A DNA stretch of 64,000 nt from Acutalibacteraceae bacterium. Its GTDB lineage: Bacteria; Bacillota; Clostridia; Oscillospirales; Acutalibacteraceae. The DNA is taken from the NCBI GenBank assembly GCA_045616815.1, contig JAZLHN010000173.1, positions 10,564-74,563 on the forward strand. The letters run 5' to 3'. The notes under the pieces are model-generated. The model saw only the letters and a program-made list of their open reading frames with translations, did not search any database and was not told the DNA's origin. Below are positions 4,900-27,471 of the stretch, piece after piece; position 1 is the stretch's first letter, and each line of letters starts with the position of its first letter. The position numbers and the translations under genes are program-made.

Positions 4900-4900
4900 A

Positions 4901-7245: not shown

Positions 7246-7255
7246 AACAACCAAT

Positions 7256-7284: not shown

Positions 7285-7296
7285 AAAACTATATTA

Positions 7297-7674: not shown

Positions 7675-7893
7675 ATGTACAGAAATCAAAAAAACAAGAA
7701 AGAAAAAGAAGAAACCGGCGGTTATGGTGAAGAGGGCGGGTTTGATGAGACCTTTGCTTTCATCGCGGGGTTTACGGAAGGCGGCGCTCCTTTCGGCGTA
7801 ACGTGGGAAGACGCGAAAAGGCTTGCCGCCGAGGAGGGTGAGCTTATCAACTGTCCTTTTGAGGAAGATGACGAAAAAGAGCTTTCATTCTAA
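7675..7893 (+). CDS. Small acidic hypothetical protein (72 aa)
   Basis: The ORF has an ATG at 7675 (MYRNQKNKK...) and lies directly upstream of the SWIM gene. I recognise no motif. Confidence 0.4.
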   Translation: MYRNQKNKKEKEETGGYGEEGGFDETFAFIAGFTEGGAPFGVTWEDAKRLAAEEGELINCPFEEDDEKELSF

Positions 7894-7925
7894 AAATAAG
7901 GTGATCTGCGGAAGGAGAACGGAAA

Positions 7926-9569: not shown

Positions 9570-9677
9570 ATCGGAAATATCCGGAAAAGATTATGTTTAT
9601 TATGAGTTCAATCTTCATCCGAACAACCGGTTCTTTTTCCGGGTTCAGCAAATTTGTAAGAACCTTCAATCTCCCGA

Positions 9678-9706
9678 TTGACTATAATTTCGATTTTGGT
9701 TATACT
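9678..9706 (+). promoter_or_regulatory. Sigma-A-type promoter (TTGACT-17 nt-TATACT)
   Basis: Read directly upstream of the DUF1016-type gene. Confidence 0.5.
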
Positions 9707-9732
9707 ATGAAAATGAAAAAAGTTCAAATACT

Positions 9733-10758: not shown

Positions 10759-10908
10759 TACGGTGATATTTTGAAAAGATTATGTATGTTCGGCTGCCGT
10801 ATGCATTTTGTTATTGGATCCGTTATCAACAACCGTACCAAATTTCCCTTATACGAACACCTATTATTTCAACGGCGGTTTTGCCGTTTTCATGAGCGTA
10901 TAAGGACG

Positions 10909-10948
10909 ATCAGCCGGTGAGGTAATTTACCCCGCCGGCTGATTTTTT
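10909..10948 (+). terminator. Rho-independent terminator
   Basis: Stem atcagccgg...ccggctgat is followed by tttttt. A smaller hairpin lies at 10871-10890. Confidence 0.65.
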
Positions 10949-11013
10949 CGTGAAACATTCCGTCCCTTGCTAATTCGCTGTTCATGCGGTATGCTGAAAA
11001 CGCAGCGGAGGTG

Positions 11014-11487
11014 ATGAATACAATGCAGACCGGTCAGAAATTACAAAAGCTGCGCTTGCAGGCGAATCTAACGCAGGAACAGTTAGCCGAAAAGCTGTAT
11101 GTTTCGCGCGATCTCGTGTCCAAATGGGAAACCGGCGTCCGGCGTCCCGATCACAAAACCGTTTTACGTATCTGTGAGATTTTGTCCGTTTCTCCGGATG
11201 AATTGATGCAGGCGGATGACAACATATTGCATGAGCTTTCGGAATGTATCCCCGAAGACTTAAAAACAAAAGACGCGGACGTGCAATCACTGTTGAATCC
11301 GTTTTTGCGGACACTCCCGGAGCGGGACTGCAATATTTTCATAATGCGGTATTACCGTTCGGACAGCATGGAGCAGATCGCGGACAAAACGGGCTTGCGT
11401 GAGGCAAACGTGCGGCTGATCCTGCACAGAACGAGAAAAAAGCTCAGAAAATATTTATCGGAGGAAACTATCCATGAACAGTCATGA
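11014..11487 (+). CDS. Fusion of an XRE-type HTH domain and a sigma-70 region-4-like domain
   Basis: The N-terminus LQKLRLQANLTQEQLAEKLYVSRDLVSKWETG is XRE-type HTH. The C-terminus LPERDCNIFIMRYYRSDSMEQIADKTGLREANVRLILHRTRKKLRK is region 4. The start is ambiguous (10984, 11014 or 11023). Confidence 0.65.
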   Translation: MNTMQTGQKLQKLRLQANLTQEQLAEKLYVSRDLVSKWETGVRRPDHKTVLRICEILSVSPDELMQADDNILHELSECIPEDLKTKDADVQSLLNPFLRTLPERDCNIFIMRYYRSDSMEQIADKTGLREANVRLILHRTRKKLRKYLSEETIHEQS

Positions 11488-12322
11488 TATATTCAATGCC
11501 ATGGGCTCCATCGACGAAGACCTTGTTGCCCGTGCGGAAAACAGCAAAAAATCCAGGAAAAGCACCGTTTCCAAACGTGTCATTCCCCTTGCATTATGTC
11601 TGGCGATCGCTTTCGCGGCAGTATTCGGTTTCTTTAAGAACGGCTCTCCCGATGTAACGGCACCGACGGCAACACAAGACGTATCGGCTCCCCGTTTCGG
11701 GCTGCTTGTCGCCAGCGCGGCGGAGAAAGACGATGTTACATTCCGGCAGGTAAAAAACGGATACAATGTCACTGTTCCCTATGAATGTCGTTTGATGCTC
11801 GAACACGTTGACGGCATGACCACGGAGCAGAAAAACGCGGTATTCGACAAGCTGAAAGAAATCAACAAAGAGTATATTGAAAGAGAGGACAGAGATATTC
11901 CGTCCTACGGCGCGGAGATACATCTTTCGGATGAAACCGAAAACAGTATCTATGCCGTATATTCACTCGCCTATTTCTCCTTTGCTGTCGAAAACGCAGA
12001 GCTTCTTGACAGGATCGTAATATCCGGTACCGGCAATTACAGCTTTACAAAGCATACTTCCGATTCCTGCACCGCCGGCGCGGATGAGGGACGGGAGCTG
12101 ACGATCTCCGGCGACGAATACAGAAAAAATAACACGGTCGGCATCAGCTGGAATCCCTCTTATGAAACGATCGCGGCGTTTGAAAGCGATGCCCAAATGA
12201 CCGTATCCGACATAACGGACACCCTTATTTTTACCGCGTTTTTTAAGGACGGCAAAACGGAACAGATCCGCGTTGATATTTCCTTTGACGATAACGGGAT
12301 CATGAACGCAGTCGTCGGATAA
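11474..12322 (+). CDS. Single-pass membrane protein (anti-sigma-like partner of the preceding gene)
   Basis: It overlaps the upstream stop. It has a short N-terminus, a TM helix VIPLALCLAIAFAAVFGFF and an extracytoplasmic domain. I recognise no catalytic motif. Confidence 0.5.
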   Translation: MNSHDIFNAMGSIDEDLVARAENSKKSRKSTVSKRVIPLALCLAIAFAAVFGFFKNGSPDVTAPTATQDVSAPRFGLLVASAAEKDDVTFRQVKNGYNVTVPYECRLMLEHVDGMTTEQKNAVFDKLKEINKEYIEREDRDIPSYGAEIHLSDETENSIYAVYSLAYFSFAVENAELLDRIVISGTGNYSFTKHTSDSCTAGADEGRELTISGDEYRKNNTVGISWNPSYETIAAFESDAQMTVSDITDTLIFTAFFKDGKTEQIRVDISFDDNGIMNAVVG

Positions 12323-12441
12323 GCAAAAAACCGGGATAGAGGTTTCTTTGTACAAAATCCTATATTCTATGACCTGAATCACGAAACAGAAGTTTACGCG
12401 CTTTGGGTGTAAACTGCCGTTTTTCGTCTTCGTCTCTCCGC

Positions 12442-12470
12442 TTGACAAAAAAAAGCGGATTTGATAATAT
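12442..12470 (+). promoter_or_regulatory. Sigma-A-type promoter (TTGACA-17 nt-TAATAT with upstream TG) heading the heptose/radical SAM operon
   Basis: Read directly: cTTGACAaaaaaaagcggatTTGaTAATAT. Confidence 0.5.
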
Positions 12471-12520
12471 ATAATTAATTATATTTTAATGGAAGAGTGT
12501 TTTTTGCGGAGGGTGAGATA

Positions 12521-13393
12521 TTGTATTGCATTGCGGGTGCCGACGGCTTTTTCGGCGCGTATATTCAGAATGATCTCATCGGACGCGGGGAAAGCGTACT
12601 TGCCCTCAACCACCGTTCCGCCGTTTTTCCGGAGTCGGAGAACGTGAAAAATCTTCCGTTCGAGCTTACGTCCCGCAAGGATCTCGACGCTCTGCACGCG
12701 TTTCTGAAAGACAAAAAAGATATAAAGCTTATTTATCTCATCGCGGCGCATTCACCGGACTTCGTGAAAGCGCAGCCGGAAAAAGCGCTGTATATCAACA
12801 GCCGCGCGTATGAGGACTTCCTTACGAAGCTTTCGGATTGCGATATAACGCGGCTTTACTATGCTTCGAGCGACACGGTGTACGGAGAGAATAAGGACGA
12901 TACGCCGTTTACCGAAACGTCGCCCCTTTCTCCCGTGAATCTCTACGGAGAGCAAAAGGCACGCGCGGAGGAGATCACGCTTGGCTGCGGCTTTTCCGTC
13001 ACTCGGTTTCCGTACATGTTCGCGCCGTCCCTGACGCATAAAAAGCATTTTTTCGATACGCTCACCGATAAGCTTTCCGGCGGGGAGAGCATATATATGT
13101 TCACGGACTATATCCGTTCGTCGCTCACCTATCCCGCCGCGGCGGAATATCTCTGCCGACTTTCGGACGCGGATACGGACGAAAAAATATTCAATGTCTG
13201 CGCCGACGAACCCACTTCGAAATACGATATCGGACTTTACGCCGCGAAAACGTGCGGAGCGGATGAAAAACTCGTCGTGCCGTGCCTCAGCGGCGACACG
13301 GACGTGTTCACCGAAAAGCGGGCGGGACTTCTCACCATGTCGAACGCAAAACTGAAAGCGGCGCTCGGAATTACGCAGCGCATCGGCTTCTGA
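12521..13393 (+). CDS. NAD-dependent sugar-nucleotide epimerase/dehydratase/reductase (extended SDR)
   Basis: GADGFFGAYI (GxxGxxG), SSDTVYG and YGEQKARAE (YxxxK) are present. A TTG start at 12521 follows SD ggaggg (the ORF track GTG is at 12497). Confidence 0.7.
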   Translation: MYCIAGADGFFGAYIQNDLIGRGESVLALNHRSAVFPESENVKNLPFELTSRKDLDALHAFLKDKKDIKLIYLIAAHSPDFVKAQPEKALYINSRAYEDFLTKLSDCDITRLYYASSDTVYGENKDDTPFTETSPLSPVNLYGEQKARAEEITLGCGFSVTRFPYMFAPSLTHKKHFFDTLTDKLSGGESIYMFTDYIRSSLTYPAAAEYLCRLSDADTDEKIFNVCADEPTSKYDIGLYAAKTCGADEKLVVPCLSGDTDVFTEKRAGLLTMSNAKLKAALGITQRIGF

Positions 13394-13408
13394 AAAAAGG
13401 AAAGAATT

Positions 13409-14386
13409 ATGGTCATTTCAAGAACTCCGTTTCGTATGTCGTTCTTCGGCGGCGGTACCGATTACAGGGAATACTATGAAAAATACGGCGGCAGCGTCAT
13501 TTCCGCTACCTTCGATAAATACTGCTTCGTCACCGTGCGGGATTATCCGCCGTTCTTCAGCTATAAAAATCAGCTCACGTATTCAAAGATCGAGCGTTTC
13601 AACTCGCCGGACGAAGTATCGCATCCTCTCGTCCGCGAAACGATGAAGTATTTAGGCGAAAACGCTCTGCAGATCGGCTACGACTCCGATCTCCCCGCGC
13701 GTACGGGCATCGGTTCGAGCTCGTCGTTCGCGGTGGGACTTCTCAACAGCATCCATACGCTGCGCGGCGGCAGACCGAACGCCTATACGCTTGCGCAGGA
13801 AGCCATTTTTATCGAGCGCGAAAGGTGTGCGGAGCTCGGCGGCGTGCAGGATCAGATCGCGGCGGCGTACGGCGGCTTCAACCGCATTGATTTCAGCGCG
13901 GACGGCTTTACTGTCCGTCCGGTGAACATCCCGTCCGAACGGCTTGAGAACCTGAACGCGAAGCTGATGCTGTTTTTCTCGGGCACGAGCCGTATTTCAA
14001 GCGATATCTCCAAAGAGCAGTCCGCCAATCTCAACAAAAACATCGATACGCTCTGGGACATGCGCGGGCTGACGGACGAGGCGGAAAAGATCCTTCTTTC
14101 CTCCTGCTCTCTCGATCGCTTCGGTGAACTGCTCGACGTTACGTGGCAGCTGAAGCAGAAGCTCGCGTCCAATATATCCACCGACGAGGTAAACGGCATC
14201 TATGCCGCCGCGAAAGAGAGCGGCGCCGTCGGCGGCAAGCTTTTAGGCGCGGGAGGCGGCGGTTTTCTGCTGCTGTACGTCCCGGAAGAGAAACAGGCGA
14301 ACGTAAGAAAGGCCCTTTCAAAATATATGTACGTGCCCTTTTCGTTTGAGCATGAGGGCAGCAAAATCATTTACGCGCAGAAATAA
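13409..14386 (+). CDS. hddA: GHMP-family sugar kinase, D-glycero-D-manno-heptose 7-phosphate kinase-like
   Basis: The N-terminus ISRTPFRMSFFGGGTDY and the GHMP motif PARTGIGSSSSFAVG are present, with a C-terminal GGKLLGAGGGGFLL. An HddC/GmhB gene lies in the same operon. Confidence 0.65.
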   Translation: MVISRTPFRMSFFGGGTDYREYYEKYGGSVISATFDKYCFVTVRDYPPFFSYKNQLTYSKIERFNSPDEVSHPLVRETMKYLGENALQIGYDSDLPARTGIGSSSSFAVGLLNSIHTLRGGRPNAYTLAQEAIFIERERCAELGGVQDQIAAAYGGFNRIDFSADGFTVRPVNIPSERLENLNAKLMLFFSGTSRISSDISKEQSANLNKNIDTLWDMRGLTDEAEKILLSSCSLDRFGELLDVTWQLKQKLASNISTDEVNGIYAAAKESGAVGGKLLGAGGGGFLLLYVPEEKQANVRKALSKYMYVPFSFEHEGSKIIYAQK

Positions 14387-14398: not shown

Positions 14399-15334
14399 AT
14401 GTCGGATATACTCATCACCGGCGGCGCCGGCTATATCGGCTCGGTGCTCGTGCCGGAGCTTTTACAGAGAGGTCATAACGTTACGGTGCTCGATTCGTTT
14501 TTGTACCGTCAGGCGTCTCTGATCGACTGCTGTAAATATAAAAATTTCACGATCGTGAACGGCGACGCGCGCGATGAGGAAACGCTGAAAAAAGTACTCG
14601 ACGGCAAAGACTTCATTTTCCCGCTCGCGGCTCTCGTCGGCTTCCCCGTGTGCGATAAGGACAAGACCGCGGCGACCACCACCAACCTCGGAGCCGTGGA
14701 AAGTATTATAAAACTGCGCGAAAAAGGACAGAAGATCGTTTTTCCCTGCACCAACAGCGGCTACGGCCTCGGACAGGGACAGAATTACTGTACCGAGGAG
14801 TCGCCCATCGACCCCATCTCCCTTTACGGAAAAACCAAAATGGCGGCGGAAAAAGCCGTGCTGGACGCGGGTGATTCGCTCACCTTCCGTTTTGCGACGC
14901 TCTTCGGCGCCTCTCCGAGAATGCGTACCGATCTGCTCGTGAACGATTTCGTATACAGAGCGGTGTTCGACCGTACCGCGGTCATTTTCGAAGGTCATTT
15001 CATGCGCAACTATCTCCATGTCCGCGACGCCGCGCGTGCCTTCATGTTCGCGATGGAGAATTTCGATAAAATGCAGGGCCGGCAGTACAACTGCGGATTA
15101 AGTGACGCCAATCTTTCCAAAATAGAGCTCTGCGAAAAGATAAAAGAGCATATCCCGCAGTTCATGTATATCGAGGCGCCCGTGGGCACCGATCCCGACA
15201 AACGGAATTATCTCGTGTCGAACGCGCGGATAGAAAGCATGGGCTACAGGCCCGCCTACAGCCTCGACGATGGCATCGAGGAGCTTATCAAGGTGTATTC
15301 CATTATCAAAAATTCATTTTACGGGAACGTGTGA
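14399..15334 (+). CDS. NAD-dependent sugar-nucleotide epimerase/dehydratase/reductase (extended SDR)
   Basis: TGGAGYIGS and YGKTKMAAE (YxxxK) in a 311-aa protein. Confidence 0.7.
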   Translation: MSDILITGGAGYIGSVLVPELLQRGHNVTVLDSFLYRQASLIDCCKYKNFTIVNGDARDEETLKKVLDGKDFIFPLAALVGFPVCDKDKTAATTTNLGAVESIIKLREKGQKIVFPCTNSGYGLGQGQNYCTEESPIDPISLYGKTKMAAEKAVLDAGDSLTFRFATLFGASPRMRTDLLVNDFVYRAVFDRTAVIFEGHFMRNYLHVRDAARAFMFAMENFDKMQGRQYNCGLSDANLSKIELCEKIKEHIPQFMYIEAPVGTDPDKRNYLVSNARIESMGYRPAYSLDDGIEELIKVYSIIKNSFYGNV

Positions 15335-15337
15335 ACT

Positions 15338-15700
15338 ATGGCGCTCATTGAAAAACTCACCCCCGATTTCACCTTCACGGACGACCGCGGCACGCTCACC
15401 CAGCTCGTGAGCGGCGGCTATAACCAGGTCAACGCGGTATTCACGAAGGCGGGCGCGGTGAGAGGAAGATTCCACTATCATAAAGAGAACAAAGAGACGT
15501 TCTTCATCCTTTCCGGCAGCGTGAGGGTACGCGCGGAGCTTGACGGCGAAACGGAGGAGCATATTTTTTCCTCCGGCGATATGTTTCTCGTGAACGAGTA
15601 CGTGCGGCACGATTTTCGGTATCTTGAGGATACGTATTTGGTCGGGATGTATTCCGGCTGTGTGGAAAAAGCCGACGGAACGAAGGATATCTATGAATGA
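15338..15700 (+). CDS. Small cupin-fold protein, sugar-nucleotide isomerase/epimerase-like (FdtA/WxcM/CapF-C type)
   Basis: VRGRFHYHKENKETFFILSGSVRV...GDMFLV is a cupin metal/substrate motif pattern. The gene sits inside a sugar-nucleotide operon. Confidence 0.45.
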   Translation: MALIEKLTPDFTFTDDRGTLTQLVSGGYNQVNAVFTKAGAVRGRFHYHKENKETFFILSGSVRVRAELDGETEEHIFSSGDMFLVNEYVRHDFRYLEDTYLVGMYSGCVEKADGTKDIYE

Positions 15701-16946
15701 CGTTATAATTCTCGCCGGAGGGCTCGGTACGCGTCTCAGTCATGTGGTAAGCGACACACAGAAGACGATGGCGCCCGTGAACGGCAGACCGTTTTTATAC
15801 TATATAGCGGAGTATCTCATTGCCCGCGGGATTCAGAAGCTCGTTTTCGCCGTGTCCTACCGCTCGGAGCAGATCCGGGAATATTTCGGGAACGAATATA
15901 AGGGCGTAAAGATCCTGTATTCCGAGGAAGCGGAGCCTCTCGGCACCGGCGGCGCGATAAAGCAGGCGCTGGAGCTGTGTACCTCCGAAAACGTTTTTAT
16001 TCTGAACGGCGACACCTTTTTCGACGTTGATTTCCCGGCGCTCGAAAAACGCCACGCGGCGCTTAAAGCCGACATAACGCTGAGCGTAAGGGAAGTGGGC
16101 TGCCGCGACCGTTCGGGTGTGGTCGTCTTCGACGAAGAAGGCAATATCACGGCGTTCAACGAAAAAAAAGCCATCGACCGGGGCTTTATCAACGGCGGCG
16201 TGTACCTTGTGAAAAGGAGCATAACGGAAAAGCTTCCGGACGGAAAATTCTCGTTTGAGACCGACGTCATGGAAAAGCTCGTTTTCCGCATGGCGGCTCT
16301 TCCGTCCGACGGCTATTTCATCGACATCGGCGTACCGTCCGATTTCTTCCGGGCGCAGACCGAGATCCCGCTGAGATCCGGTGTGAAAACGTTCCGGGCG
16401 GCGTTCATCGACCGCGACGGCGTGATCTGTAAAGAAAAACATCACTTATATAAAAAAGAAGATTTCGAGTTCATCGACGGCGCACCCGAGGCGCTGGCCG
16501 CTCTGCGGGAAAAGGGGTATCTCGTGATCGTCGTCACCAATCAGGCGGGCGTCGCCAAGGGACTCTACACCGAGGACGACGTGAACGCCCTGCACGACCA
16601 CATGACGGAGCTTCTGAAGGACAGAGCGGTGATCGACGGTATCTACTACTGCCCGTATCATCCCGAGGGCGTTGTTGAAAAATATAAAAAAGATTCTCCC
16701 GAGCGAAAACCCGCTCCCGGCATGATCGAAAGAGCTGTGAGAGACTTCGCGCTCAAGGGGATAAACATAGATATAAAAAACTCCCTTATGATAGGCGATA
16801 CCGAAAGAGATATCGAAACGGGTATCCATGCCGGCATCGGCACGAAGGTGCTCGTCCGCTCGGGGCACGCGATCCCCGACGAGAACAAAAGCCGTGCCGA
16901 TATCGTGACCGATTCGGTCAGAACTTTTACGGAACTTTATTTGTGA
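15693..16946 (+). CDS. Bifunctional sugar-1-phosphate nucleotidyltransferase (HddC-like) fused to a HAD D,D-heptose 1,7-bisphosphate phosphatase (GmhB-like)
   Basis: The N-terminal half has ILAGGLGTRLS...GTGGAI...NGD. The C-terminal half has FIDRDGVI (DxD HAD motif I), VVTNQAGVAKG, CPYHPEG, RKPAPGM and GDTERD. ATG 15693 overlaps the upstream stop. Confidence 0.75.
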   Translation: MNDVIILAGGLGTRLSHVVSDTQKTMAPVNGRPFLYYIAEYLIARGIQKLVFAVSYRSEQIREYFGNEYKGVKILYSEEAEPLGTGGAIKQALELCTSENVFILNGDTFFDVDFPALEKRHAALKADITLSVREVGCRDRSGVVVFDEEGNITAFNEKKAIDRGFINGGVYLVKRSITEKLPDGKFSFETDVMEKLVFRMAALPSDGYFIDIGVPSDFFRAQTEIPLRSGVKTFRAAFIDRDGVICKEKHHLYKKEDFEFIDGAPEALAALREKGYLVIVVTNQAGVAKGLYTEDDVNALHDHMTELLKDRAVIDGIYYCPYHPEGVVEKYKKDSPERKPAPGMIERAVRDFALKGINIDIKNSLMIGDTERDIETGIHAGIGTKVLVRSGHAIPDENKSRADIVTDSVRTFTELYL

Positions 16947-16974: not shown

Positions 16975-19900
16975 ATGAAGAAAAAGATCTATCTCATACA
17001 GGCCAGCGCCGTTTACGGCGAAAGCGTGAAAAGCGCCTACCTCCCTTACGCGGCGGGCTGCCTTGCCGCCTACGCCTTTGCGGACGAAAAGATAAAAGAG
17101 GAGTATTCTCTCGGCAGATTTATTTTTACCCGCGAGAATATCGACGAGGCCGTTGCCTCCCTTGAGAAGCCGTATTTTGTCGGTTTTTCGTCCTATATCT
17201 GGAATATGGAGTACAACAAGCTTTTCGCGAAAAAGCTGAAAGAAAAATATCCGGACGTCATCATCGCGTTCGGCGGCCATAACGTGAAGCCCGACGGCAG
17301 CGATCTGGATAAGATCCCCGAGGCCGATATCATTATGCACGGCGAGGGAGAAAAGGTATTCAAAGATCTTCTGCTGGCTCTTTCGGCAAACAGACCGTAT
17401 TCCTCTGTCGGCGGCGTGTCTTTCCGGGAAAACGGTTCTGTTGTCACAACACCCGCGGGCGAAGCGGCGGATATCGCTTCATTCCCTTCTCCTTATACGG
17501 AGGGATATTTTGACGATATCATCCGTGATTCCGGGATCGTTCCGTCCATCGTATGGGAAACCAACCGCGGTTGTCCCAACCGCTGCGCGTTCTGCGACTG
17601 GGGTTCTCTCAAATCGAAGCTCAGACAGTTCCCGATGGATAGGATCAGGGCGGAGCTCGACTGGATGGCGGAAAATAAGATCGAATACGTTTACTGCGCC
17701 GATTCCAATTTCGGAATATATCCGCGTGATACCGAGATCGCCGATATGATCATTGCATACAACGAAAAATACGGCTATCCGAAGGTATTCCGTACCAATT
17801 ATACGAAAAATAAAGACGACGTCGTGTTTGAGATCAGCAGCAAGCTTATCAATCGGCGTATCGGCAAATCCCCCACGCTCTCTTTCCAGAGCCTTTCGCC
17901 CGACGTGCTTGAAAAGATCGGCCGGAGCAACATGGATCTTGTGAATTTCAAAAGGCTCATGGCGCGCTACAGCGAAGCGAAGGTACCTGTTTTTTCGGAG
18001 CTCATACTCGGTTTGCCGGGCGAGACCTACGACAGCTTTACGGACGGGATCTGCGACCTTATTGAGTCCAATCAGCATACGGCTCTCGGTATCTATCCCT
18101 GTGAGCTTCTTCCCAATTCCCGCATGGGCAGCAAAGAATTCTGTGAAAAATACGGTATCCGCACCGTGCACACGGAGTTCGCGCAGTATCACACTAAGCC
18201 GGAGGAGGACGGCATAAAGGAAATGTCCAATATCGTCATATCCACCTCCGATATGGGGATCGCGGACTGGAAGCGTTCGTTCATCTTCTCGGTGTGCGTG
18301 CAGGCTTTCCACAATCTTGCGCTGACCAGAGCCATCGCCATATATCTTAATAAAGAAAAAAATATTCCGTATAAACGGTTTTACGAGTCGCTGATAAGTC
18401 TTATCTCTTCCGCAAAGGAAGACAGTGTATGCGGTCGGGTCTTCCGCAGGATCCGTGCGTTGACCGACGGCGTTATAGACGGAAAGAATTCGTTCTCCTG
18501 TTTGTTCGGCGACGAGGAACGGCTGCTGTGGAGTTTTGAGGAATATATGTTCCTCGCCCTGGCGAGGGAAGCGGACCGGTTCTATGACGAGATCGGCGGA
18601 TTCGTAAAGTCCTATGGGATCGAAGAGGATATTTTCAACGCGCTGATGACGTATCAGAGCGCGATCATCAAAAAACCCGGCAGGACCGGGATGGCTCTCA
18701 CTCTCGGCTATGACTTCTACGGCTATTTCAAGCGCATTTATCAGGATGAATACAAGCCTCTGGAAAAAATCGGAAACACCGTTACGGTTTCGGATACACC
18801 CGCCGCGACGTGGGACGAATATGCTCGTATGAACGTCTGGTACGGCCGCCGCGACGACGCGCAGCTTTATACCGGAAAGAAAAATACGGCGGTACAGACG
18901 TTTGAAAAAACGGAAAAGAAAAACGTGTACATGGTGCAGGCTACCTATCTGAACGGAAAAACCGTTTATATTCCCTATGCCGTGGGCGCGCTCATCGCCT
19001 ACGCGTGGAAGGACGAGACCGTAAAAGCGCATTATAACGCGGCGGATATCTTTTTCCTCCGGGAGGATATCGACGACGTCGTGGCAAAGCTCGATTCTCC
19101 GTTTTACGTGGGATTTTCCTCCTATATGTGGAATTTTGAATACAACAAGAAGCTTGCCGCGAAAATAAAGGAAACATACCCGGAGTGTATCATCCAGTTC
19201 GGCGGACATCAGGTAGCGCCCGGAGACGACATCCTGCGCGAAAATCCTTTTATCGACGTTGCCGTTCACAACGAGGGGGAAGAGCCGTTCAGGCTTCTGC
19301 TGCTCGAGTATCTGAAGGAGCAGCCGGATCTTTCTTCGATCCCCAACGTCACCTACCGCGAAAACGGAGAAATCAAAAGCAATCCCTGTGCCGTTCCCGA
19401 GGTGGACGAGTATCCTTCGCCTTATCAGGAGGGAGTCTTTGACCGGATCATCGCGGAGAATCCGGATATCAGATTCGATGCGCTGCTTGAAACGAACCGC
19501 GGCTGTCCGTATTCCTGCACGTACTGCGGATGGGGCATGTATCAATCGAAGATCCGCATGTTCTCGATGGAGAGGATCTACAAGGATATCGAATGGGCCA
19601 GCGAGCATAAGATCGAGTTCTTAGGCGGCGCGGACGCGAATTTCGGTCTGTTTGACCGTGACGAACAGATCGTGGACTGGATCATCGATTTCAAAAAACG
19701 CACCGGATATCCCGATAAATTCCAGGTATCCTACGCCAAAAACAGCACGGAACGTATTTTCAGAATGACCGAAAAGCTCCATGCCGCCAATATGGATAAG
19801 GGCGTGACGCTTGCCTTCCAGTCTCTTGATCCGCAGGTACTCGACAATATCGGCCGTTCGAATATCAAGCTCGATTATTATTCAACGCTTCTGCGTATGT

Positions 19901-20835
19901 ACGCGAACGCGGGCATCCCCACGTATTCCGATCTGATCATAGGTCTTCCCGGGGAAACGTACGCTTCTTTCGTAAAAGGGATCGATACGCTTCTTGCCGC
20001 GGGACAGCATTCGTCTTTGTTCATCCATATATTGGAATGGCTTCCCTGTTCCACGATGGGCAACAGGGAATATATGGACCGTTTCGGGATCGAATATACC
20101 GTGCTGCCGCTTAATCAGCCCCACCGTGTAAAGACCGGCGAGGACAGCATCACCGAGTATTCGCGTATTATCACAAAGACGAATACCATGGATCACGCCG
20201 AGTGGATAAGGATGAATATGTTCTCCGCGTGCGTGCAGTGCTTCCATCATCTCGGTCTGCTGGAGTATGTGGCGCTGTACTGCCATTATGACCTCGGGTT
20301 CGGTTACGGCGACTTCTATGACCGGCTGCTGACATATCTTGAACAGCACCCGGATACCGTGGCGGGGAACGTCTTCGCCCGCGTGAAACAGCATTTTTCG
20401 GACGTGATCGAAAAAGGCGGTCCCGTTGTGTTCGTTGACGAAACATACGGTCCCGTGTCGTGGACGGCGGAAGAATACGCCTTCCTGGAGATCGTGAGAA
20501 ACAAAAAACGTTTTTATGAAGAGATCCGCGGATTCACGAACGGTCTCGGTATCGATCCCGACGTGCTGGACGACCTTTTCGGGTATCAGTACGCGATCAT
20601 CAAAACGGTCAACAACAGGCACAGCGAACAGGTCATCCGTTATGATTTCCCCGACTATTTCAAAGGCGCGCTGGAGGGAATGCCCCCTGCTCTTGCGCCG
20701 GCGGATAAAAAACTCGTCATCGACGATCCCGATACCTTCGATAACTGGGAGGATTACGCCCGTTTCGTCGTTTGGTACGGGCGGCGCGGCGGCAAGAATA
20801 TCTATCTTTCCGAAGCGCATATCGAAGAAATATGA
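16975..20835 (+). CDS. Tandem-fused double B12-binding-domain-type radical SAM enzyme (two complete clade-A modules, 1286 aa)
   Basis: Module 1 has VGFSSYIWN, AFGGHN, HGEGE, TNRGCPNRCAFCDWG (17572-17595) and WDEYARMNVWYGRR. Module 2 restarts at KKNVYMVQ (about 18919) with GFSSYMWN, FGGHQ, HNEGE, TNRGCPYSCTYCGWG (19504-19527) and WEDYARFVVWYGRR. Confidence 0.85.
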   Translation: MKKKIYLIQASAVYGESVKSAYLPYAAGCLAAYAFADEKIKEEYSLGRFIFTRENIDEAVASLEKPYFVGFSSYIWNMEYNKLFAKKLKEKYPDVIIAFGGHNVKPDGSDLDKIPEADIIMHGEGEKVFKDLLLALSANRPYSSVGGVSFRENGSVVTTPAGEAADIASFPSPYTEGYFDDIIRDSGIVPSIVWETNRGCPNRCAFCDWGSLKSKLRQFPMDRIRAELDWMAENKIEYVYCADSNFGIYPRDTEIADMIIAYNEKYGYPKVFRTNYTKNKDDVVFEISSKLINRRIGKSPTLSFQSLSPDVLEKIGRSNMDLVNFKRLMARYSEAKVPVFSELILGLPGETYDSFTDGICDLIESNQHTALGIYPCELLPNSRMGSKEFCEKYGIRTVHTEFAQYHTKPEEDGIKEMSNIVISTSDMGIADWKRSFIFSVCVQAFHNLALTRAIAIYLNKEKNIPYKRFYESLISLISSAKEDSVCGRVFRRIRALTDGVIDGKNSFSCLFGDEERLLWSFEEYMFLALAREADRFYDEIGGFVKSYGIEEDIFNALMTYQSAIIKKPGRTGMALTLGYDFYGYFKRIYQDEYKPLEKIGNTVTVSDTPAATWDEYARMNVWYGRRDDAQLYTGKKNTAVQTFEKTEKKNVYMVQATYLNGKTVYIPYAVGALIAYAWKDETVKAHYNAADIFFLREDIDDVVAKLDSPFYVGFSSYMWNFEYNKKLAAKIKETYPECIIQFGGHQVAPGDDILRENPFIDVAVHNEGEEPFRLLLLEYLKEQPDLSSIPNVTYRENGEIKSNPCAVPEVDEYPSPYQEGVFDRIIAENPDIRFDALLETNRGCPYSCTYCGWGMYQSKIRMFSMERIYKDIEWASEHKIEFLGGADANFGLFDRDEQIVDWIIDFKKRTGYPDKFQVSYAKNSTERIFRMTEKLHAANMDKGVTLAFQSLDPQVLDNIGRSNIKLDYYSTLLRMYANAGIPTYSDLIIGLPGETYASFVKGIDTLLAAGQHSSLFIHILEWLPCSTMGNREYMDRFGIEYTVLPLNQPHRVKTGEDSITEYSRIITKTNTMDHAEWIRMNMFSACVQCFHHLGLLEYVALYCHYDLGFGYGDFYDRLLTYLEQHPDTVAGNVFARVKQHFSDVIEKGGPVVFVDETYGPVSWTAEEYAFLEIVRNKKRFYEEIRGFTNGLGIDPDVLDDLFGYQYAIIKTVNNRHSEQVIRYDFPDYFKGALEGMPPALAPADKKLVIDDPDTFDNWEDYARFVVWYGRRGGKNIYLSEAHIEEI

Positions 20836-20846: not shown

Positions 20847-20890
20847 CAACCTCGGGCTTTCCGTGTAAGGAAGATGCCCGAGGCTGTTTT
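20847..20890. terminator. Bidirectional terminator hairpin between convergent radical SAM genes
   Basis: caacctcgggc...gcccgaggctg stem with an internal sub-stem, followed by ttttt. Confidence 0.7.
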
Positions 20891-22803
20891 TACATGTATT
20901 CTATTGTGACGGATTCCCGGTCGTTCGTGGCGAGCGTCGCGCTGCGGCGTTTGCCGTACCAGATGATCTCGCGGGCGTATTCGTCCCACGCGGTGATATT
21001 TTTCTCCATTTTTATATGGAGGATATTTTTTTTCTTTTCGAGAGGCTTATACTCCCGCATATAGATATTGCGGAAATAGTTATAAAAATCGTATTCCAGC
21101 GGCAGATGCAGTTCGTTTTTATCCGGCTGACGGAGAATCTCGGTCTGATAGGTAAGGAGCTGACTGTAAACGTCGTCGGGAATGCCGAGCGATTCGAAAA
21201 ACGGGAGCATTTCCTGCGTGTAGCGGGCCAGCTCGTGAGTGCACTCGAGGAAAAGTCCCTCCTCGAAATACCAGCCCGTGGTGCCGAAGATATCCTTCTG
21301 ATACGCCCACGGATTTTCGGTATCGCTGATGGTATCGCGTACCCAGGTGAGGACCTGTCCCGGCAGGGTATCCGGACGGCTCGAAAGAAAAGCAAAGAGT
21401 CTGTTGTAAAAATCGAGATAGGACATACCCATCTCGTGGCGCATATACAGGGCAAAGCAGCGCACGAGACCGATGTAATGGAAGGCCTCTACGCACACGG
21501 CGTAAACGTTGGTTTTTTCCCAATCCGCGCGGCTCATCGAATAGGATCCGGTCGTTATGCGGAAGCGCTCGTTCACACCGCTGAAATCCGGCGTGTAATG
21601 CACGGCGTCGATGGGTACCTCCGTGACCTCCATTTTGTATTTTTCCTGATAGTCTTTTTTGCCCATGGGGGCGTTCGGATAGACCTGACAGTGGTGGAAG
21701 GTGACCGAATTGTGCTGACCCATTTCCATCAGATCGCAGAGCGTTTTCCGGAAGCTTTCAAAGGATTCTCCGGGCAGGCCGAGGATCAGGTCGGAATAAG
21801 TCGGGATGCCGATGGCATTGCAGCGTTTTGCCAGATCGGTGAACACGTCTACGTCAAGATTTTCGCGGGCGATGTTGTCAAGAGCCTCTTCGCAGGTAGT
21901 CTGATAGGATATGGTGATCCCCTTGTCCGCGCCCGCGGCGTTGAGGATCCTGCCAGCCTCAAACACGGTATCGTTGCTGTTTTTCGCGTAGCAGGGCTTG
22001 AATATGTTGGGATAGCCGTTCTTTTTCCGTACGTCCACCACCCACTGTGCGATCTCGATATCCCGTTCAACGATACCGAAATTGCCGTCCGCGCAGTAAA
22101 TGTATTCCAGCTTATGATCGCTTGCCCACTGTATCTCCGCCTTGACCTTTTCGATCGGGAAGAGCCGCAGCCTTCTGTCGTGGCTCCATTCGCAGTAGGC
22201 ACAGGTGTAGGGACAGCCGCGGTTGGTCTCCACGGTCATATTGAACATGATCTCCGGGTGCTCGGCCATGATATCGTCGAAGATCCCGGTGAGATAGGGG
22301 GAGGGAAATCCGGATAGGTCGTTGAGCTGCTGCGGGATCCTTACGATCTTTCCGTTTCTGCGGAACATGGCGCCCGGCACATCGTCACAGCTTTCGCCGT
22401 GCAGACAGTGCTTGAGCAGCATGGGAAAGGATACTTCGCCTTCGCCGTATAAAACGAAATCGACGTCGGGCTGTTCGTTCAGCATTTCCGAATCCGGCGT
22501 GATGCTGTGACCGCCGACGACGATCGTACAGTCCGGATATTTTTCCTTTACGAGTTTCGCAAGGCGTTTATTGTATTCCGTATTCCAGAAGTTTGTGGAA
22601 AAGGTCACGACGTCCGGAGCGGTTATCCGGGCGAGGTTGTTCTCAAGCGTATCTCTTTCAAAGATCAGTACGGGTTTCTCATAGTTTGCCGCGATCTCGC
22701 CGTCCGCAAATGCGCTCGCCGCGATACAGCCCGCCGCATAAGGCAGATAAACAAGAGACCGATCAAAGCTGAAACCAATTTGTATCATGTACAGTTTTTT
22801 CAT
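20890..22803 (-). CDS. B12-binding-domain-type radical SAM enzyme, clade A (subtype A1)
   Basis: MKKLYMIQ...YLPYAAG, VVGGHS, YGEGE, TNRGCPYTCAYCEW and the C-terminal WDEYAREIIWYGKRR are present. ATG 22803 is preferred over GTG 22812. Confidence 0.85.
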   Translation of the reverse strand: MKKLYMIQIGFSFDRSLVYLPYAAGCIAASAFADGEIAANYEKPVLIFERDTLENNLARITAPDVVTFSTNFWNTEYNKRLAKLVKEKYPDCTIVVGGHSITPDSEMLNEQPDVDFVLYGEGEVSFPMLLKHCLHGESCDDVPGAMFRRNGKIVRIPQQLNDLSGFPSPYLTGIFDDIMAEHPEIMFNMTVETNRGCPYTCAYCEWSHDRRLRLFPIEKVKAEIQWASDHKLEYIYCADGNFGIVERDIEIAQWVVDVRKKNGYPNIFKPCYAKNSNDTVFEAGRILNAAGADKGITISYQTTCEEALDNIARENLDVDVFTDLAKRCNAIGIPTYSDLILGLPGESFESFRKTLCDLMEMGQHNSVTFHHCQVYPNAPMGKKDYQEKYKMEVTEVPIDAVHYTPDFSGVNERFRITTGSYSMSRADWEKTNVYAVCVEAFHYIGLVRCFALYMRHEMGMSYLDFYNRLFAFLSSRPDTLPGQVLTWVRDTISDTENPWAYQKDIFGTTGWYFEEGLFLECTHELARYTQEMLPFFESLGIPDDVYSQLLTYQTEILRQPDKNELHLPLEYDFYNYFRNIYMREYKPLEKKKNILHIKMEKNITAWDEYAREIIWYGKRRSATLATNDRESVTIEYM

Positions 22804-22882
22804 GACTGCCACCGTGTTTCATTGATAATAATATAAAAATCATTATAACACGGAAGACGAAAAAAATCTACCGTTGATTTGT

Positions 22883-22910
22883 TTGACAACATATTTTTTC
22901 ATGTTATAAT
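22883..22910 (+). promoter_or_regulatory. Near-consensus sigma-A promoter (TTGACA-16 nt-TGtTATAAT, extended -10)
   Basis: Read directly: tTTGACAacatattttttcaTGtTATAAT, about 34 nt upstream of ATG 22944. Confidence 0.65.
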
Positions 22911-22943
22911 ATTAAGTAACATATTTTTGACCCGGTGATATTT

Positions 22944-24848
22944 ATGAAAAATATTTATTTTATTCAGGTTGGTTTTGATTTCGACGGATCTGTGTATCTT
23001 CCGTACGCCGTGGGTACGATGGCGGCTTATTGTCTTGCGGACGAAAAACTGAATAAGGAATACGCTTTCCCCGATTTCATTTACCGTCGGGAAAAGCTGG
23101 ACGACGCACTTTCAAAGATAAAGGATCCGTATATCGCCGCGTTTTCCTGCAGCGTGTGGAATATGGAATTCAACAAAACGCTCGCAAAGCGCGTGAAAGA
23201 AAAATATCCGGAATGTATCGTCATTTTCGGCGGCCACAGTGTCCGTGAAAATGACTGCTCCCTGCTTGAAAGCGAGTCCTACGTCGATATCCTGATGTAC
23301 GGCGAGGGTGAAAAGACCTTTGCCGATATTTTGGCCGCCCTGCCGGCGGACGCGCTCGGAACGGTGGAAAACATAGCATTCCGGAAAGGCACGGAATACG
23401 TGCGCACCGAAAGAAGCGTATGCTCGGATCTGTCAAATCATCCGTCCCCGTATCTTACGGGCGTTTTCGATAAGATCATGGACGAAAATCCCGGTGCCGA
23501 CTGGCTCGCAGTGCTGGAAACGAACCGCGGCTGCCCCTATTCCTGTGCCTACTGCGACTGGTGCGCGGGTAAAAAGATGCGTCATTTCCTGCTCGAAAAG
23601 GTGCTCGGCGAGATCGACTGGTTCGCGAAAAACGAAGTGGAATATATTTTCTGCGCCGACTCCAATTTCGGTATGTTCGACCGTGACGTCGAAATAGCAG
23701 AATACCTTGTGGCATCGAAAAGAAAGACCGGCTATCCCAAGGTATTCCGTCCGTGCTACGAAAAGAACAGCGCGGACAGAGTGTTCAATATCTGCCGTAT
23801 CCTCAATTCCGAAGGTATGGACAAGGGCGCGACGATGGCGTATCAGACGCTTTCCGACGACGCGCTGAAAAACATCGGCCGGAAGAATCTGACGATGGAG
23901 CATTTCTCCTCTCTGCTTCAGCGATACAACGAGGCGGGCATTCCCACCTATTCGGAGCTTATTTTAGGCCTGCCCGGCGAAACGAAGGAAAGCTTCTGCG
24001 AGGGCATCTGCCGTCTGCTTGAAAACGGTCAGCACAATTCGATCAACGTCTATCACTGCGAGATGCTGCCGAACTCCGATATGTCGGAAAAGTCTTTCGT
24101 CGAAAAGCACGGTATCAAAGAAATAAAAGTACCCTTCAATCATATACACAGCGCGATCAAACGGGATGAGGAGGTACAGGAATATTCCTATCTCGTGCGC
24201 GCCACCGCGACCCTGCCCGAAGAGGACTGGGTGTACGCAAATCTGTTTTCGATCACGGTGCAGTGTTTCCACAGCCTCGGTTTTCTGCGTCTGTTTTCGA
24301 TCTATCTCAACTATGAGAAAAACGTAAAATATATCGACTTTTTTACCGGGCTGCTCGATTTCATCCTGAATTCGGACGGCAGACTCGGTGTGCTGTGGAG
24401 AGGCTTCCGCGAGAAATACGAAAGCTCTCTTTCCGGCGACTGGAATTATCACAACGAAAAATTCGGCAACGTGACGTGGTTCTTCGAGGAGGGCGCGTTT
24501 TTAGAGCTCGTGTGCGAGCCGGACGCGTATATGAACGAGCTTCTGCCGTATCTGAAGACTTTTGATATCGGGGATGAGCTGTTCAAGCAGATGCTCGTTT
24601 TCCAGCGTCATATCGTGCGTATTCCTTCGGGCGGAGAAGCGGAGATCACATCCGATTGGGATATCTTTTCTTTCTATACAAGCGTGATCGGCGGCAGTCC
24701 CGAACCTTTACGGAAACGGAAGACCACGGTGAGATTCTGTCCGTCGGTGACATATGACGATATCGAGACCTACGCTCGCGAAACGGTATGGTTCGGCAGA
24801 CGCCGCGGCGCGGCCATGCTGCACGGAAAGGAAATGATCCGCTTATGA
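22944..24848 (+). CDS. B12-binding-domain-type radical SAM enzyme, clade A (A1)
   Basis: MKNIYFIQ...YLPYAVG, IFGGHS, YGEGE, TNRGCPYSCAYCDW and YARETVWFGRRR. Confidence 0.85.
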   Translation: MKNIYFIQVGFDFDGSVYLPYAVGTMAAYCLADEKLNKEYAFPDFIYRREKLDDALSKIKDPYIAAFSCSVWNMEFNKTLAKRVKEKYPECIVIFGGHSVRENDCSLLESESYVDILMYGEGEKTFADILAALPADALGTVENIAFRKGTEYVRTERSVCSDLSNHPSPYLTGVFDKIMDENPGADWLAVLETNRGCPYSCAYCDWCAGKKMRHFLLEKVLGEIDWFAKNEVEYIFCADSNFGMFDRDVEIAEYLVASKRKTGYPKVFRPCYEKNSADRVFNICRILNSEGMDKGATMAYQTLSDDALKNIGRKNLTMEHFSSLLQRYNEAGIPTYSELILGLPGETKESFCEGICRLLENGQHNSINVYHCEMLPNSDMSEKSFVEKHGIKEIKVPFNHIHSAIKRDEEVQEYSYLVRATATLPEEDWVYANLFSITVQCFHSLGFLRLFSIYLNYEKNVKYIDFFTGLLDFILNSDGRLGVLWRGFREKYESSLSGDWNYHNEKFGNVTWFFEEGAFLELVCEPDAYMNELLPYLKTFDIGDELFKQMLVFQRHIVRIPSGGEAEITSDWDIFSFYTSVIGGSPEPLRKRKTTVRFCPSVTYDDIETYARETVWFGRRRGAAMLHGKEMIRL

Positions 24849-25585
24849 CAGCCCCGGAGTTTACGTCCGTGTCCGTGATGATGGGCGCGGTATCGGAAAC
24901 GGAGTCTCTGCGCCGGACCGTTTACGGCATTGCCGCCGCCGTTGAGCAGAAATCGGATATCGCCGAGCTGCTGATCGCTTATCCGGCCGACCGGGTAACA
25001 CCGGAATGCAAAGCCGTGCTGGACGAACTGCAGAACGAAGAAGTCGGCGTCAAACTCGATATCTTTCCGCAGATAACCCCCGGGATCGGTTTTTATTCGG
25101 ACGCGATCGAAAGGGCTACCGGCTCTCACTGCATTCCGTTTCAGACGGATATGGCTATGCCGCTTGAGATAATAGCCGATCTCATAGCCGAAGGAAAAAA
25201 AGATCCTTCGATTTTCGTGACGACCTCCCGCTGGCTGCCGGAATGTAAATGGACAGGCTACGGAGCTGTAAAAAAAGTGATAAATAAGCTTGCTCAGATC
25301 TTTTTGCGCGTGCTTTTCGGCGGAGGTCTCACCGATTATACCTGTCCCGTGCAGCTCATACCCACAGAGATCATGAAAAACATCCGTTGGGAGAAAAACG
25401 ATTTTTCCCGGTTTATGGAGATGCAGATAAAGCCTTTGCGTCTGGGATATAAATTCCGTGAGATCCCCGTGGATTGTCTGGAGCGTACGGACGGACAGTC
25501 AAGCAACAGCACGATACAGATCTTCAATTATCTGAAAACCGCTTTTCATCTGCGGTTTATGAAAAAACAGGATATACTCAAGTGA
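24845..25585 (+). CDS. Small soluble GT-A/DPM1-like glycosyltransferase-fold protein with a degenerate DxD (paralogue 1 of 3)
   Basis: Its ATG overlaps the upstream stop (ATGA). It has FQTDMAMPL in place of DxD, then SRWL...GYG...TDYTCPVQLIP...ERTDGQSSNS (DPM1-like R-x-x-G-x-S C-terminal pattern). No TM helix is present. Confidence 0.55.
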   Translation: MTAPEFTSVSVMMGAVSETESLRRTVYGIAAAVEQKSDIAELLIAYPADRVTPECKAVLDELQNEEVGVKLDIFPQITPGIGFYSDAIERATGSHCIPFQTDMAMPLEIIADLIAEGKKDPSIFVTTSRWLPECKWTGYGAVKKVINKLAQIFLRVLFGGGLTDYTCPVQLIPTEIMKNIRWEKNDFSRFMEMQIKPLRLGYKFREIPVDCLERTDGQSSNSTIQIFNYLKTAFHLRFMKKQDILK

Positions 25586-27466: not shown

Positions 27467-27471
27467 GGAGT

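Follow-up and report, generated by a model that had tools for sequence, protein, structure and literature searches.

The window analysed here is a stretch of 64,000 nucleotides from an Acutalibacteraceae bacterium (contig JAZLHN010000173.1). A promoter-like site at 12442-12470 precedes an operon beginning near 12497, whose genes, all on the forward strand, were assigned by profile search: an SDR (12497-13393), an HddA-like GHMP kinase (13409-14386), a second SDR (14399-15334), a cupin (15338-15700) and an HddC-like nucleotidyltransferase fused to a GmhB phosphatase (~15693-16946). The GmhB model (TIGR00213) scored 149.6, exactly at its cut-off; the HddC model (NF049965) scored 219.9, under its cut-off of 300, and the HddA model (NF049969) 145.1, under 600. 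The last gene of the operon follows after a gap of 28 nt. It is a complete open reading frame of 1286 amino acids (16975-20835, forward strand, coordinates including the stop codon), defined from the reading frame and from fused orthologs, with an ATG start and no internal stops. Beyond it lies a hairpin (CCTCGGGC...GCCCGAGG, 20850-20891), read from the sequence and flanked by T and A runs, which likely terminates transcription in both directions, from the fusion gene and from a convergent paralog (20890-22812, reverse strand).

The locus extends over at least 50 kb and combines 16 B12 radical-SAM modules with GDP-heptose-like sugar-nucleotide genes, an aminotransferase, glycosyltransferases and polytopic membrane proteins. 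Ten of the modules belong to clade A and six to two other B12 radical-SAM clades. Apart from the fusion, the window holds eight further stand-alone clade A paralogs of ~640 amino acids each, and the clade A genes lie close together, with spacings of -1 (an overlap), 6 and 26 nt. Genes for carrier proteins, CoA ligases, NRPSs or PKSs were not seen in the window, nor was a carrier protein or precursor peptide seen among the small ORFs.

Each half of the fusion protein is a full TokK-like module: a cobalamin-binding Rossmann domain, a radical-SAM domain with a CX3CX2C motif, and a TokK-type C-terminal domain. The two modules share 41% identity over 642 amino acids. Module 1 (subclade X1) consists of the cobalamin-binding domain (aa 1-185; 16975-17529), the radical-SAM domain (aa 186-400; 17530-18174), within which a motif search located the [4Fe-4S] motif CPNRCAFC (from aa 200; 17572-17595), and the C-terminal domain (aa 401-631; 18175-18867), ending in WDEYARMNVWYGRRDDAQL. 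Module 2 (subclade Y) has the same layout, with a cobalamin-binding domain (aa 648-830; 18916-19464), a radical-SAM domain (aa 831-1045; 19465-20109) bearing CPYSCTYC (from aa 844; 19504-19527) and a C-terminal domain (aa 1046-1286; 20110-20832) with the end WEDYARFVVWYGRRGGKNIY.... These boundaries are our own approximate partition, drawn for the first two domains of each module from Pfam models and the TokK alignment, and for the third from the TokK alignment (to residue 585 in module 1, where an AF2 model and Foldseek were also used). Two stretches of the protein match PF02310 (B12-binding; 63.3 bits against a cut-off of 32.1) and two match PF04055 (Radical_SAM; 103.6 against 29.5), and W..YAR..VWYGRR ends both halves. 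The sequence-only reading of this DNA had described two complete modules in one uninterrupted chain, cysteine triads at exactly these positions and a C-terminal WxxYAxxxVWYGRR in each half, and the description holds.

In TokK, Trp76 lies under the corrin, at the lower axial face of cobalamin. Its equivalents, placed by alignment to TokK, are W76 in module 1 (17200-17202) and W719 in module 2 (19129-19131), both within an SSY[IM]WN context; this tryptophan and the three cysteines are kept in 65/65 modules compared. Loss of cluster-binding cysteines in relatives was also looked for and none was found, both triads being intact in all 16 two-module proteins examined (the present fusion counted). 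The modules differ at the position of Arg280, which anchors the substrate in TokK and whose replacement in the R280Q variant nearly abolishes activity on TokK's own substrate: alignment places R273 (17791-17793) there in module 1 and Q917 (19723-19725) in module 2. The difference is clade-specific, with Arg or Lys in X1 modules and Gln in every Y-clade module. Going by the characterised relatives, a separate [4Fe-4S] cluster, cobalamin and SAM should be bound in each of the two modules.

The AF2 model, which covers residues 1-1200 (the last 86 are absent) and was built from a shallow alignment of 16 sequences, folds both modules well (pLDDT 88), and the secondary structure of its N-terminal B12-binding domain is consistent with a Rossmann fold. 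The pTM, taken as interface proxy in place of PAE, was 0.57, so that the single-chain modelling proposed in the earlier reading returned a confident fold and no confident fixed interface between the modules. The best Foldseek match of the model was TokK (target-normalised TM 0.86), followed by CysS (0.77), with TsrM and OxsB also among the matches. Sequence comparison gave the same order: the halves match TokK (7KDX) with E-values of 1.8e-101 and 1.4e-100 (query residues 21-585 and 17-586 against TokK 21-608 and 21-612) and, second best, CysS (9N1B) with 2e-51 and 1.5e-44. Among NCBIfam models, NF033712 (KedN5 family methylcobalamin-dependent radical-SAM C-methyltransferase) scored best with each half and with the stand-alone paralogs. 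The scores, 500.8 bits summed over the two modules and 219.5 bits for one paralog, do not reach the cut-off of 700, and since it falls below NCBI's threshold we place the fusion protein outside that family.

Module 2 begins at aa 648 (nt 18916) with KKNVYMVQATYL, in which KKNVYMVQ is the usual gene start; a gene-like restart had been noticed earlier at about 18919. Stand-alone X1 orthologs end in ...WYGRRDDAQL[NY]TGKKN[TRK][VI].. followed by the stop codon, and the matching residues YTGKKNTAV of the fusion (18868-18894) are the native C-terminal tail of module 1, so that only the ~7 residues QTFEKTE (18895-18915; 21 nt), delimited by ortholog comparison, are new linker. In the AF2 model this short segment joins the last strand of module 1 to the first strand of module 2. 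No other part of the fusion varies as much: orthologs differ here by 4-aa indels, and the differing lengths are all in frame. The junction of one ortholog (P0002) keeps AAGGAAG, a Shine-Dalgarno-like sequence, followed after 6 nt by an in-frame ATG, which supports the idea of a former spacer. The earlier proposal that the linker is a translated intergenic spacer can apply to QTFEKTE, with support from the P0002 junction, and fails for YTGKKNTAV; that all 16 residues are translated spacer is rejected, the first nine being native tail.

Fused orthologs occur in independent assemblies at 91%, 74%, 73% and 72% identity (P0121, P0002, P0003 and P0004); the linker of the first is identical, and the second has the same sequence in five SRA assemblies. 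Comparison of such assemblies, in place of raw reads, served to examine whether the frame is open across the junction. A stop codon or frameshift missed by sequencing or assembly at this A-rich site would fit the A-runs found there (GAAAAAACGGAAAAGAAAAAC) and the apparently metagenome-type assembly from which the window comes. However, at least five divergent lineages and at least eight independent assemblies show an open frame, the junctions differ in sequence and in length, and the conserved tail TGKKNT(A)V shares one frame with the conserved KKNVYMVQ. The open frame in so many assemblies effectively refutes an artefact, to which we attach a vanishingly small probability. Pairwise comparison of the orthologs gave dN of 0.11-0.26 with saturated dS for both halves; judged by these rates, both are under purifying selection. 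The low dN with saturated dS, together with the cysteine triad and tryptophan in each half, rules out a decayed pseudo-enzyme half. On the sequence evidence the fusion is genuine, evolutionarily maintained and made from two formerly separate paralogous genes.

Loci in which the halves are separate genes, which the sequence-only reading had suggested seeking, do exist. A genome scan found module 1 as a stand-alone X1 gene of 641-645 amino acids (60-63% identity) in 11 MAGs assigned to Oscillospiraceae, Acutalibacteraceae or Clostridia (loci L008-L014, L016, L017, L019 and L021), and two stand-alone orthologs of module 2 are known (L015 and L018). A word-indexed protein search had missed single-module orthologs that the genome scan later found, and its negatives are for this reason uninformative. 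In a tree of 65 modules the X1 sequences, fused and stand-alone, group with 100% bootstrap, as do the fused Y halves with the stand-alone L015 gene. The same tree contains at least five independent two-module combinations of different clade A subclades, ruling out one ancient fusion common to all two-module proteins. Three of the five fusion types include an X-type module, and one protein (P0007) carries a Y-type followed by an X2-type module, that is, related subclades in reverse order. Partners vary between lineages, and therefore no single pair is obligatory. In eight MAGs the X1 gene shows tight or translational coupling to a further clade A paralog, from which it follows that these enzymes commonly occur as pairs; at three loci (L011, L017 and L021) a stand-alone X1 gene closes its operon, with a terminator hairpin after it and no adjoining clade A partner.

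The earlier statement that the fusion ends an NDP-heptose operon is correct in so far as the gene comes last, after the HddA-like kinase, the SDRs, the cupin and HddC-GmhB. The heptose link is less secure: a search of the window for a GmhA or SIS isomerase gene found none, and in the closest fused orthologs (L001-L006) the fusion gene is not preceded by heptose genes. Two further observations count against it, namely that in many MAGs the X1 ortholog is distant from all heptose genes and that the substrates of TokK and CysS are pantetheine-linked, not sugars. An SIS/GmhA gene is present at a related locus (L007), the order SDR-cupin followed by a Y-type (module 2) gene is conserved in L015, L007 and the window, and GCA_016648615.1 too carries sugar-nucleotide genes. 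With synteny conserved in this way, a heptose-derived sugar, or a glycoconjugate built from it, is a plausible and, by inference, probable substrate. Literature searches combining heptose with B12 radical SAM, and for KedN5 and glycan C-methylation, returned nothing relevant.

Together these analyses lead us to favour, as the probable explanation, a real and maintained fusion whose single chain carries out two C-methylation steps that are non-redundant and belong to one pathway. A Y-type gene would have come to be placed immediately downstream of an X1-type gene. With loss of the X1 stop codon, translation would then have continued in frame through a spacer of ~21-33 nt, together with its ribosome-binding site and start codon. 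Each module would be a TokK/CysS-type cobalamin-dependent (class B) radical-SAM methylase acting on an unactivated carbon, where, to go by characterised relatives, a 5′-deoxyadenosyl radical would abstract hydrogen and the substrate radical would receive a methyl group from methylcobalamin. Since X1 and Y are different subclades with a clade-conserved difference at the TokK substrate anchor, they most likely perform non-redundant steps, and may act on different positions or on successive intermediates; the recurrence of fusions makes it plausible that both work in succession on a single substrate. A single chain would fix a 1:1 stoichiometry and proximity. The rarity of two-module proteins (2-3 of the top 150 clusters at 50% identity) counts against this explanation, as do the varying fusion partners and the AF2 model without a confident interface. 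So does TokK, a monomer that carries out three successive methylations as a single enzyme, a partner therefore not being mechanistically required.

The rarity of two-module proteins is in keeping with a neutral accident, in which loss of a stop codon ahead of an in-frame spacer simply welded two close paralogs, with no coupling, channelling or interface. The tight spacing of clade A paralogs in the window, the fusion of several subclade combinations, the short and variable linker with its indels, the low pTM without a confident interface and the monomeric state of TokK all agree with such an origin. It is harder to reconcile with an X1-Y fusion that has outlasted synonymous saturation and persists at protein identities down to 72%, with the recurrent X-type partner, and with the joining of related X and Y subclades both ways round. 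Moreover, X1 and Y are not adjacent in sister taxa, and therefore a rearrangement and a fusion were fixed, not a stop-codon loss alone. We consider the accident somewhat unlikely. Very improbable, in our estimation, is an obligate intramolecular heterodimer, with packed modules, composite substrate or reductant sites and neither module active alone. The ~7-residue linker does force proximity, and coupled gene pairs and fusions of clade A paralogs are found repeatedly; but TokK elutes as a monomer, its substrate tunnel is built by three domains of one chain, the CysS entries 9N1B-D contain one chain each (three entries, three chains), the pTM is just 0.57, and X1 genes stand alone before terminator hairpins. 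The earlier suggestion that clade A enzymes work as hetero-oligomers finds no support in the monomeric TokK or in a pTM this low despite a pLDDT of 88.

A broader proposal is that the TokK-like arrays define an undescribed pathway of uncultured gut and rumen Clostridia that repeatedly C-methylates or alkylates a GDP-heptose-derived sugar or surface glycoconjugate, recurrent fusions and pairs marking obligatory hand-offs and X- and Y-type enzymes forming a fixed two-step unit; we regard this as distinctly doubtful. Few members of the very large class of cobalamin-dependent radical-SAM methylases have been characterised, and to our knowledge the solved structures are single-module without exception. 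The fusion is a genetic hint as to which paralogs act together in multi-paralog loci, a tractable single-polypeptide target for successive radical methylations, and a pointer to an uncharacterised, radical-SAM-rich locus of glycan type in gut and rumen Oscillospirales. Should it be a neutral accident, it would be a curiosity of crowded paralog arrays. The tandem two-module form is unmentioned in a 2026 review of the class and in full-text literature searches.

The fusion resembles Rosetta-stone gene fusions in that the parts are separate elsewhere, fused here and joined independently more than once. Unlike those cases, the partners are paralogs of one enzyme family rather than different pathway enzymes, so that little can be learned from the fusion about the function that is coupled. 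Precedent for class B methylation of sugar carbons comes from the GenK/GenD1-type B12 radical-SAM enzymes, the sugar C-methyltransferases of aminoglycoside pathways, which are single-module and encoded in antibiotic clusters; they are not among the close relatives returned by our sequence or structure searches. CysS, an iterative methylase of cystobactamid biosynthesis, shares the fold (TM 0.77) and the tryptophan beneath cobalamin, but is single-module, acts on pantetheine-linked 3-methoxy-4-aminobenzoate and shows ~21-22% identity in structural alignment. The large C-terminal domain is found in TokK alone among TokK, TsrM and OxsB, and is present in CysS as well. Closest of all are TokK and ThnK (carbapenem C6 alkylation; 7KDX/7KDY), with ~565 aligned residues at E ~1e-101, the CX3CX2C motif, Trp76 and the same three-domain architecture of cobalamin-binding Rossmann domain, partial radical-SAM barrel and large helical C-terminal domain; module 1 also has a basic residue at the position of Arg280, where module 2 has Gln. 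TokK itself is a 681-aa single-module monomer that acts on a pantetheinylated carbapenam and belongs to an actinomycete antibiotic cluster, whereas the fusion carries two modules per chain, lies at a locus of Clostridia that includes sugar-nucleotide genes and is ~30% identical in the Foldseek alignment. We see the tandem two-module form as a new variation on a known enzyme type, not as a system of a new kind.

The fusion gene occupies 16975-20835 on the forward strand as a single open reading frame with an ATG start, 1286 codons and no internal stop. By regex scan it contains two CX3CX2C motifs and no more: CPNRCAFC in module 1 (residue 200, nt 17572-17595, +) and CPYSCTYC in module 2 (residue 844, nt 19504-19527, +), precisely where the sequence-only reading had placed two intact triads. 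The restart of the second module that it described is also present (KKNVYMVQATYL, residue 648, nt 18916, +), as is the C-terminal signature, W..YAR..VWYGRR in both modules. Pfam detects two stretches each of PF02310 (B12-binding) and PF04055 (Radical_SAM), both above gathering scores. The modules share 41% identity over 642 residues, within the range of their identities to the eight stand-alone ∼640-aa paralogs of the window (34-53%; one pair 76%).

Each half aligns over nearly its full length with TokK (PDB 7KDX; E = 1.8e-101 and 1.4e-100), with CysS (9N1B) as the next match. For an AlphaFold2 model of residues 1-1200 (mean pLDDT 88) the best Foldseek match is again TokK (target-normalised TM 0.86, half of the query covered), then CysS (0.77); no solved structure spanning both modules was found with this model. 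KedN5 is the best NCBIfam model, and because the score lies well under its cut-off we assign the protein only to the TokK/CysS-like class B radical SAM enzymes. TokK has three domains with a substrate tunnel at the domain interface, Trp76 beneath the corrin and Arg280 as the anchor of the substrate carboxylate; CysS has the same Trp. This Trp and the three Cys are kept in 65 of 65 aligned modules of clade A (the TokK-like paralogs of ∼640 aa). Across the same 65, the Arg280 position is clade-specific: Lys or Arg in modules of the module 1 type (X), always Gln in those of the module 2 type (Y), and Asn in one further subclade. Together these patterns suggest that modules 1 and 2 are complete and cofactor-competent, and that they probably differ in substrate or regiochemistry.

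An assembly artefact is effectively excluded by recurrence of the fused frame in four homologous proteins. P0121 comes from another assembly and matches at 91% identity with no gaps and an identical linker; P0002 (74%) is encoded identically on contigs of five separate sequencing runs; P0003 and P0004 are fused orthologs at 72% and 73% identity. Junctions of the fused orthologs vary in sequence and length (4-residue indels), and every one is in frame. When the window gene, P0002 and P0003 are compared, module 1 shows a non-synonymous divergence of 0.13-0.26 and module 2 one of 0.11-0.15, with synonymous sites saturated, which argues that both modules are kept by selection and that the fusion has lasted over substantial divergence. 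The linker is the fastest-evolving part of the gene in this comparison.

A scan for module orthologs, with one genome taken for each species, gave 15 loci: 14 in Oscillospiraceae, Acutalibacteraceae or unclassified Clostridia MAGs from ruminant, human-gut and other unspecified sources, and one distant match in a Desulfobacteraceae MAG. The halves do occur as separate genes. Module 1 stands alone in 11 loci (641-645 aa, 60-63% identity); what follows it is either an ortholog of window gene 31968-33890 or a terminator hairpin, and in none of the 11 a module 2 ortholog. Module 2 stands alone in loci L015 (58% identity, 651 aa) and L018 (66% identity, where it has a GGAGG and an ATG of its own). 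A neighbour-joining tree of 65 modules (100 bootstraps) places all module 1 sequences, fused and stand-alone, in one clade (X1) and groups the fused module 2 halves with the L015 gene in another (Y), each with 100% bootstrap.

Stand-alone module 1 proteins end in WYGRRDDAQL[NY]TGKKN[TRK][VI] plus two residues. Since these ends carry TGKKN, the YTGKKNTAV of the window belongs to the native tail, which leaves just QTFEKTE (21 nt) as new sequence, a length similar to the usual intergenic gaps of the locus (26 nt from 51011 to 51038; 28 nt upstream of the fusion gene). The P0002 junction reads AGT AAG GAA GAC GGT ATG AAA AAG AAT: a Shine-Dalgarno-like AAGGAAG, 6 nt, ATG, then the usual MKKN N-terminus, all in frame, and thus plainly a remnant of the point where gene 2 once began. 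The native tail and this relic together indicate that the earlier idea of a translated spacer is right in principle, limited to ∼7-11 of the 16 linker residues for which it was proposed.

Stand-alone module 1 and the 31968-33890 ortholog form a tightly coupled pair in L008-L014, L016 and L019 (∼10001-13850 in each), hosted by Oscillospiraceae, Acutalibacteraceae and Clostridia MAGs. Stop and start overlap or are separated by 2 nt in most loci (∼270 nt in L009). In L010 the pair is isolated amid unrelated genes (MFS, SdpI, PrsW, NUDIX, LeuA-like, AMP-binding), with no other radical-SAM or heptose genes within 10 kb on either side; in the flanks of L008, L009, L012-L014, L016 and L019 no window-like genes were found beyond the pair.

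The two-module architecture is rare but recurrent. Fifteen other two-module clade-A proteins (1271-1321 aa) were found, and the tree of modules implies at least five independent combinations: X1-Y (window, P0002-P0004); Y'-X2, related subclades in the opposite order (P0007); Z-X2 (P0005, P0006, P0008-P0013); a 31968-like with a 30045-like module (P0015); and a pair of sister modules (P0014, P0016). Both Cys triads are kept in all five, so neither half has lost its cluster ligands in these double clade-A proteins. A heterologous fusion, P0232 (1173 aa), consists of a clade-C-like B12 radical-SAM module followed by a clade-A-like one whose Cys motif is degenerate (CPFQYGYC). An exhaustive HMMER search with module 2 gave 1573 50%-identity clusters at E <= 1e-30; among the best 150, double clade-A proteins occur in only two, plus P0232. 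Many distant clade-A homologs (P0020-P0064 and others) reach 800-1480 aa because of intein/Hint domains (PF14890, PF14528, PF07591) inserted near the Fe-S motif, at query residues ∼170-240.

The fusion gene is the final member of a co-directional series that starts after a promoter-like site (12442-12470), runs through an SDR, an HddA-like GHMP kinase, a second SDR, a cupin and an HddC-like nucleotidyltransferase fused to GmhB, and is closed by a hairpin terminator (20850-20891). Its position at the end of the series is thus as the sequence-only reading described; the label 'NDP-heptose operon' is plausible and not proven, because among the heptose-type proteins only the GmhB domain reaches a curated cut-off and the 64-kb window lacks a GmhA. 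Just upstream of the closest fused orthologs (L002-L006) these sugar-nucleotide genes are absent. L015 and L007 share a conserved order, SDR-cupin then Y-type module, which the window also keeps, there with HddC-GmhB and module 1 placed between the cupin and the Y-type module. Kinase, SDR and nucleotidyltransferase genes lie beside radical-SAM arrays in L007, as they do, with a cupin, in GCA_016648615.1; the link between sugar-nucleotide genes and methylases is therefore conserved at the level of the locus. The HddC-GmhB ORF (15624-16946) has a listed TTG start overlapping the cupin gene (15338-15700); its true start is likely the ATG at ∼15693 (MNDVIILAGG).

The locus as a whole (12497-62713) is a more surprising object than the fusion itself: the 64 kb hold 16 B12-type radical-SAM modules in three clades (ten TokK-like clade A; three clade B, ∼610-645 aa; three clade C, ∼495 aa), and no account of a locus of this kind came to light in the literature. 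Clade-B proteins (25652-27586 and 28201-30039, −; 60189-62012, +) carry CX4CX2C (CYW[GS]KC[TS]FC) rather than the CX3CX2C of clade A, and their best NCBIfam match, below cut-off, is TIGR03975, a RiPP-maturation C-methyltransferase model. The locus also encodes a DegT aminotransferase, a CotH-domain protein, an FAD oxidoreductase, a 2Fe-2S protein, a GtrB/ArnC-like GT2 whose C-terminus bears two transmembrane helices, and four polytopic membrane proteins lacking Pfam matches, a gene set compatible with a pathway to a surface glycoconjugate. Neither a carrier protein nor a precursor peptide was seen in the window. Three small proteins (240-280 aa) without Pfam matches lie among the radical-SAM genes (27472-28197, −; 24788-25585 and 54852-55688, +). 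The latter two have counterparts in L001, L007 and L015, those of L007 with weak GT2 matches, and the small proteins may be part of a conserved module set. ORF 48957-51011 probably starts at ∼49089 (MKKNVYFVQ), not within the GT2 gene. A perfect sigma-70-like promoter (22883-22910: TTGACA, 16 nt, TATAAT, TG extension) precedes paralog 22935-24848 and falls in the divergent region this gene shares with 20890-22812 (−).

The left flank (1-11500) is unrelated to the locus. It encodes a LytTR-type regulator fragment, a GHKL histidine kinase, an M42 peptidase, an RlmL-like methyltransferase, a SWIM protein and a YhcG nuclease, together with two small adjacent ORFs (4711-5200, −), possibly a toxin-antitoxin pair. 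Judged by eye, 5432-5926 is a possible sigma-factor-like ORF, followed by a single-TM protein (5920-6801), and 10984-11487, directly before the locus, a possible HTH regulator.

We favour, with some reserve, the reading that a single chain carries two TokK-type methylase modules, each autonomous and not redundant with the other, that serve one pathway. Joining them would fix their stoichiometry and hold them in proximity; by homology, each would transfer the methyl group of methylcobalamin to a substrate radical, and synteny points to a heptose-derived sugar, or its glycan, as the candidate substrate. The main rival, a neutral accident among tightly packed paralogs, we regard as a rather unlikely account. 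That the halves form an obligate intramolecular heterodimer, in line with the hetero-oligomers suggested in the sequence-only reading, finds little support: TokK elutes as a monomer, the substrate cavities of TokK and CysS lie inside one chain, and the single-chain model (residues 1-1200, shallow alignment) has a pTM of only 0.57 despite high pLDDT.

The fusion provides a clean, verified example of the Rosetta-stone kind and may help show which paralogs cooperate. The enzyme family and its fold are already known; a tandem two-module member appears to be undescribed, fused or tandem forms being absent from a 2026 review of the enzyme class and full-text literature searches giving no relevant match. 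The substrates of TokK and CysS are pantetheine-linked, whereas that proposed for the fusion would be a heptose-derived sugar or glycan.
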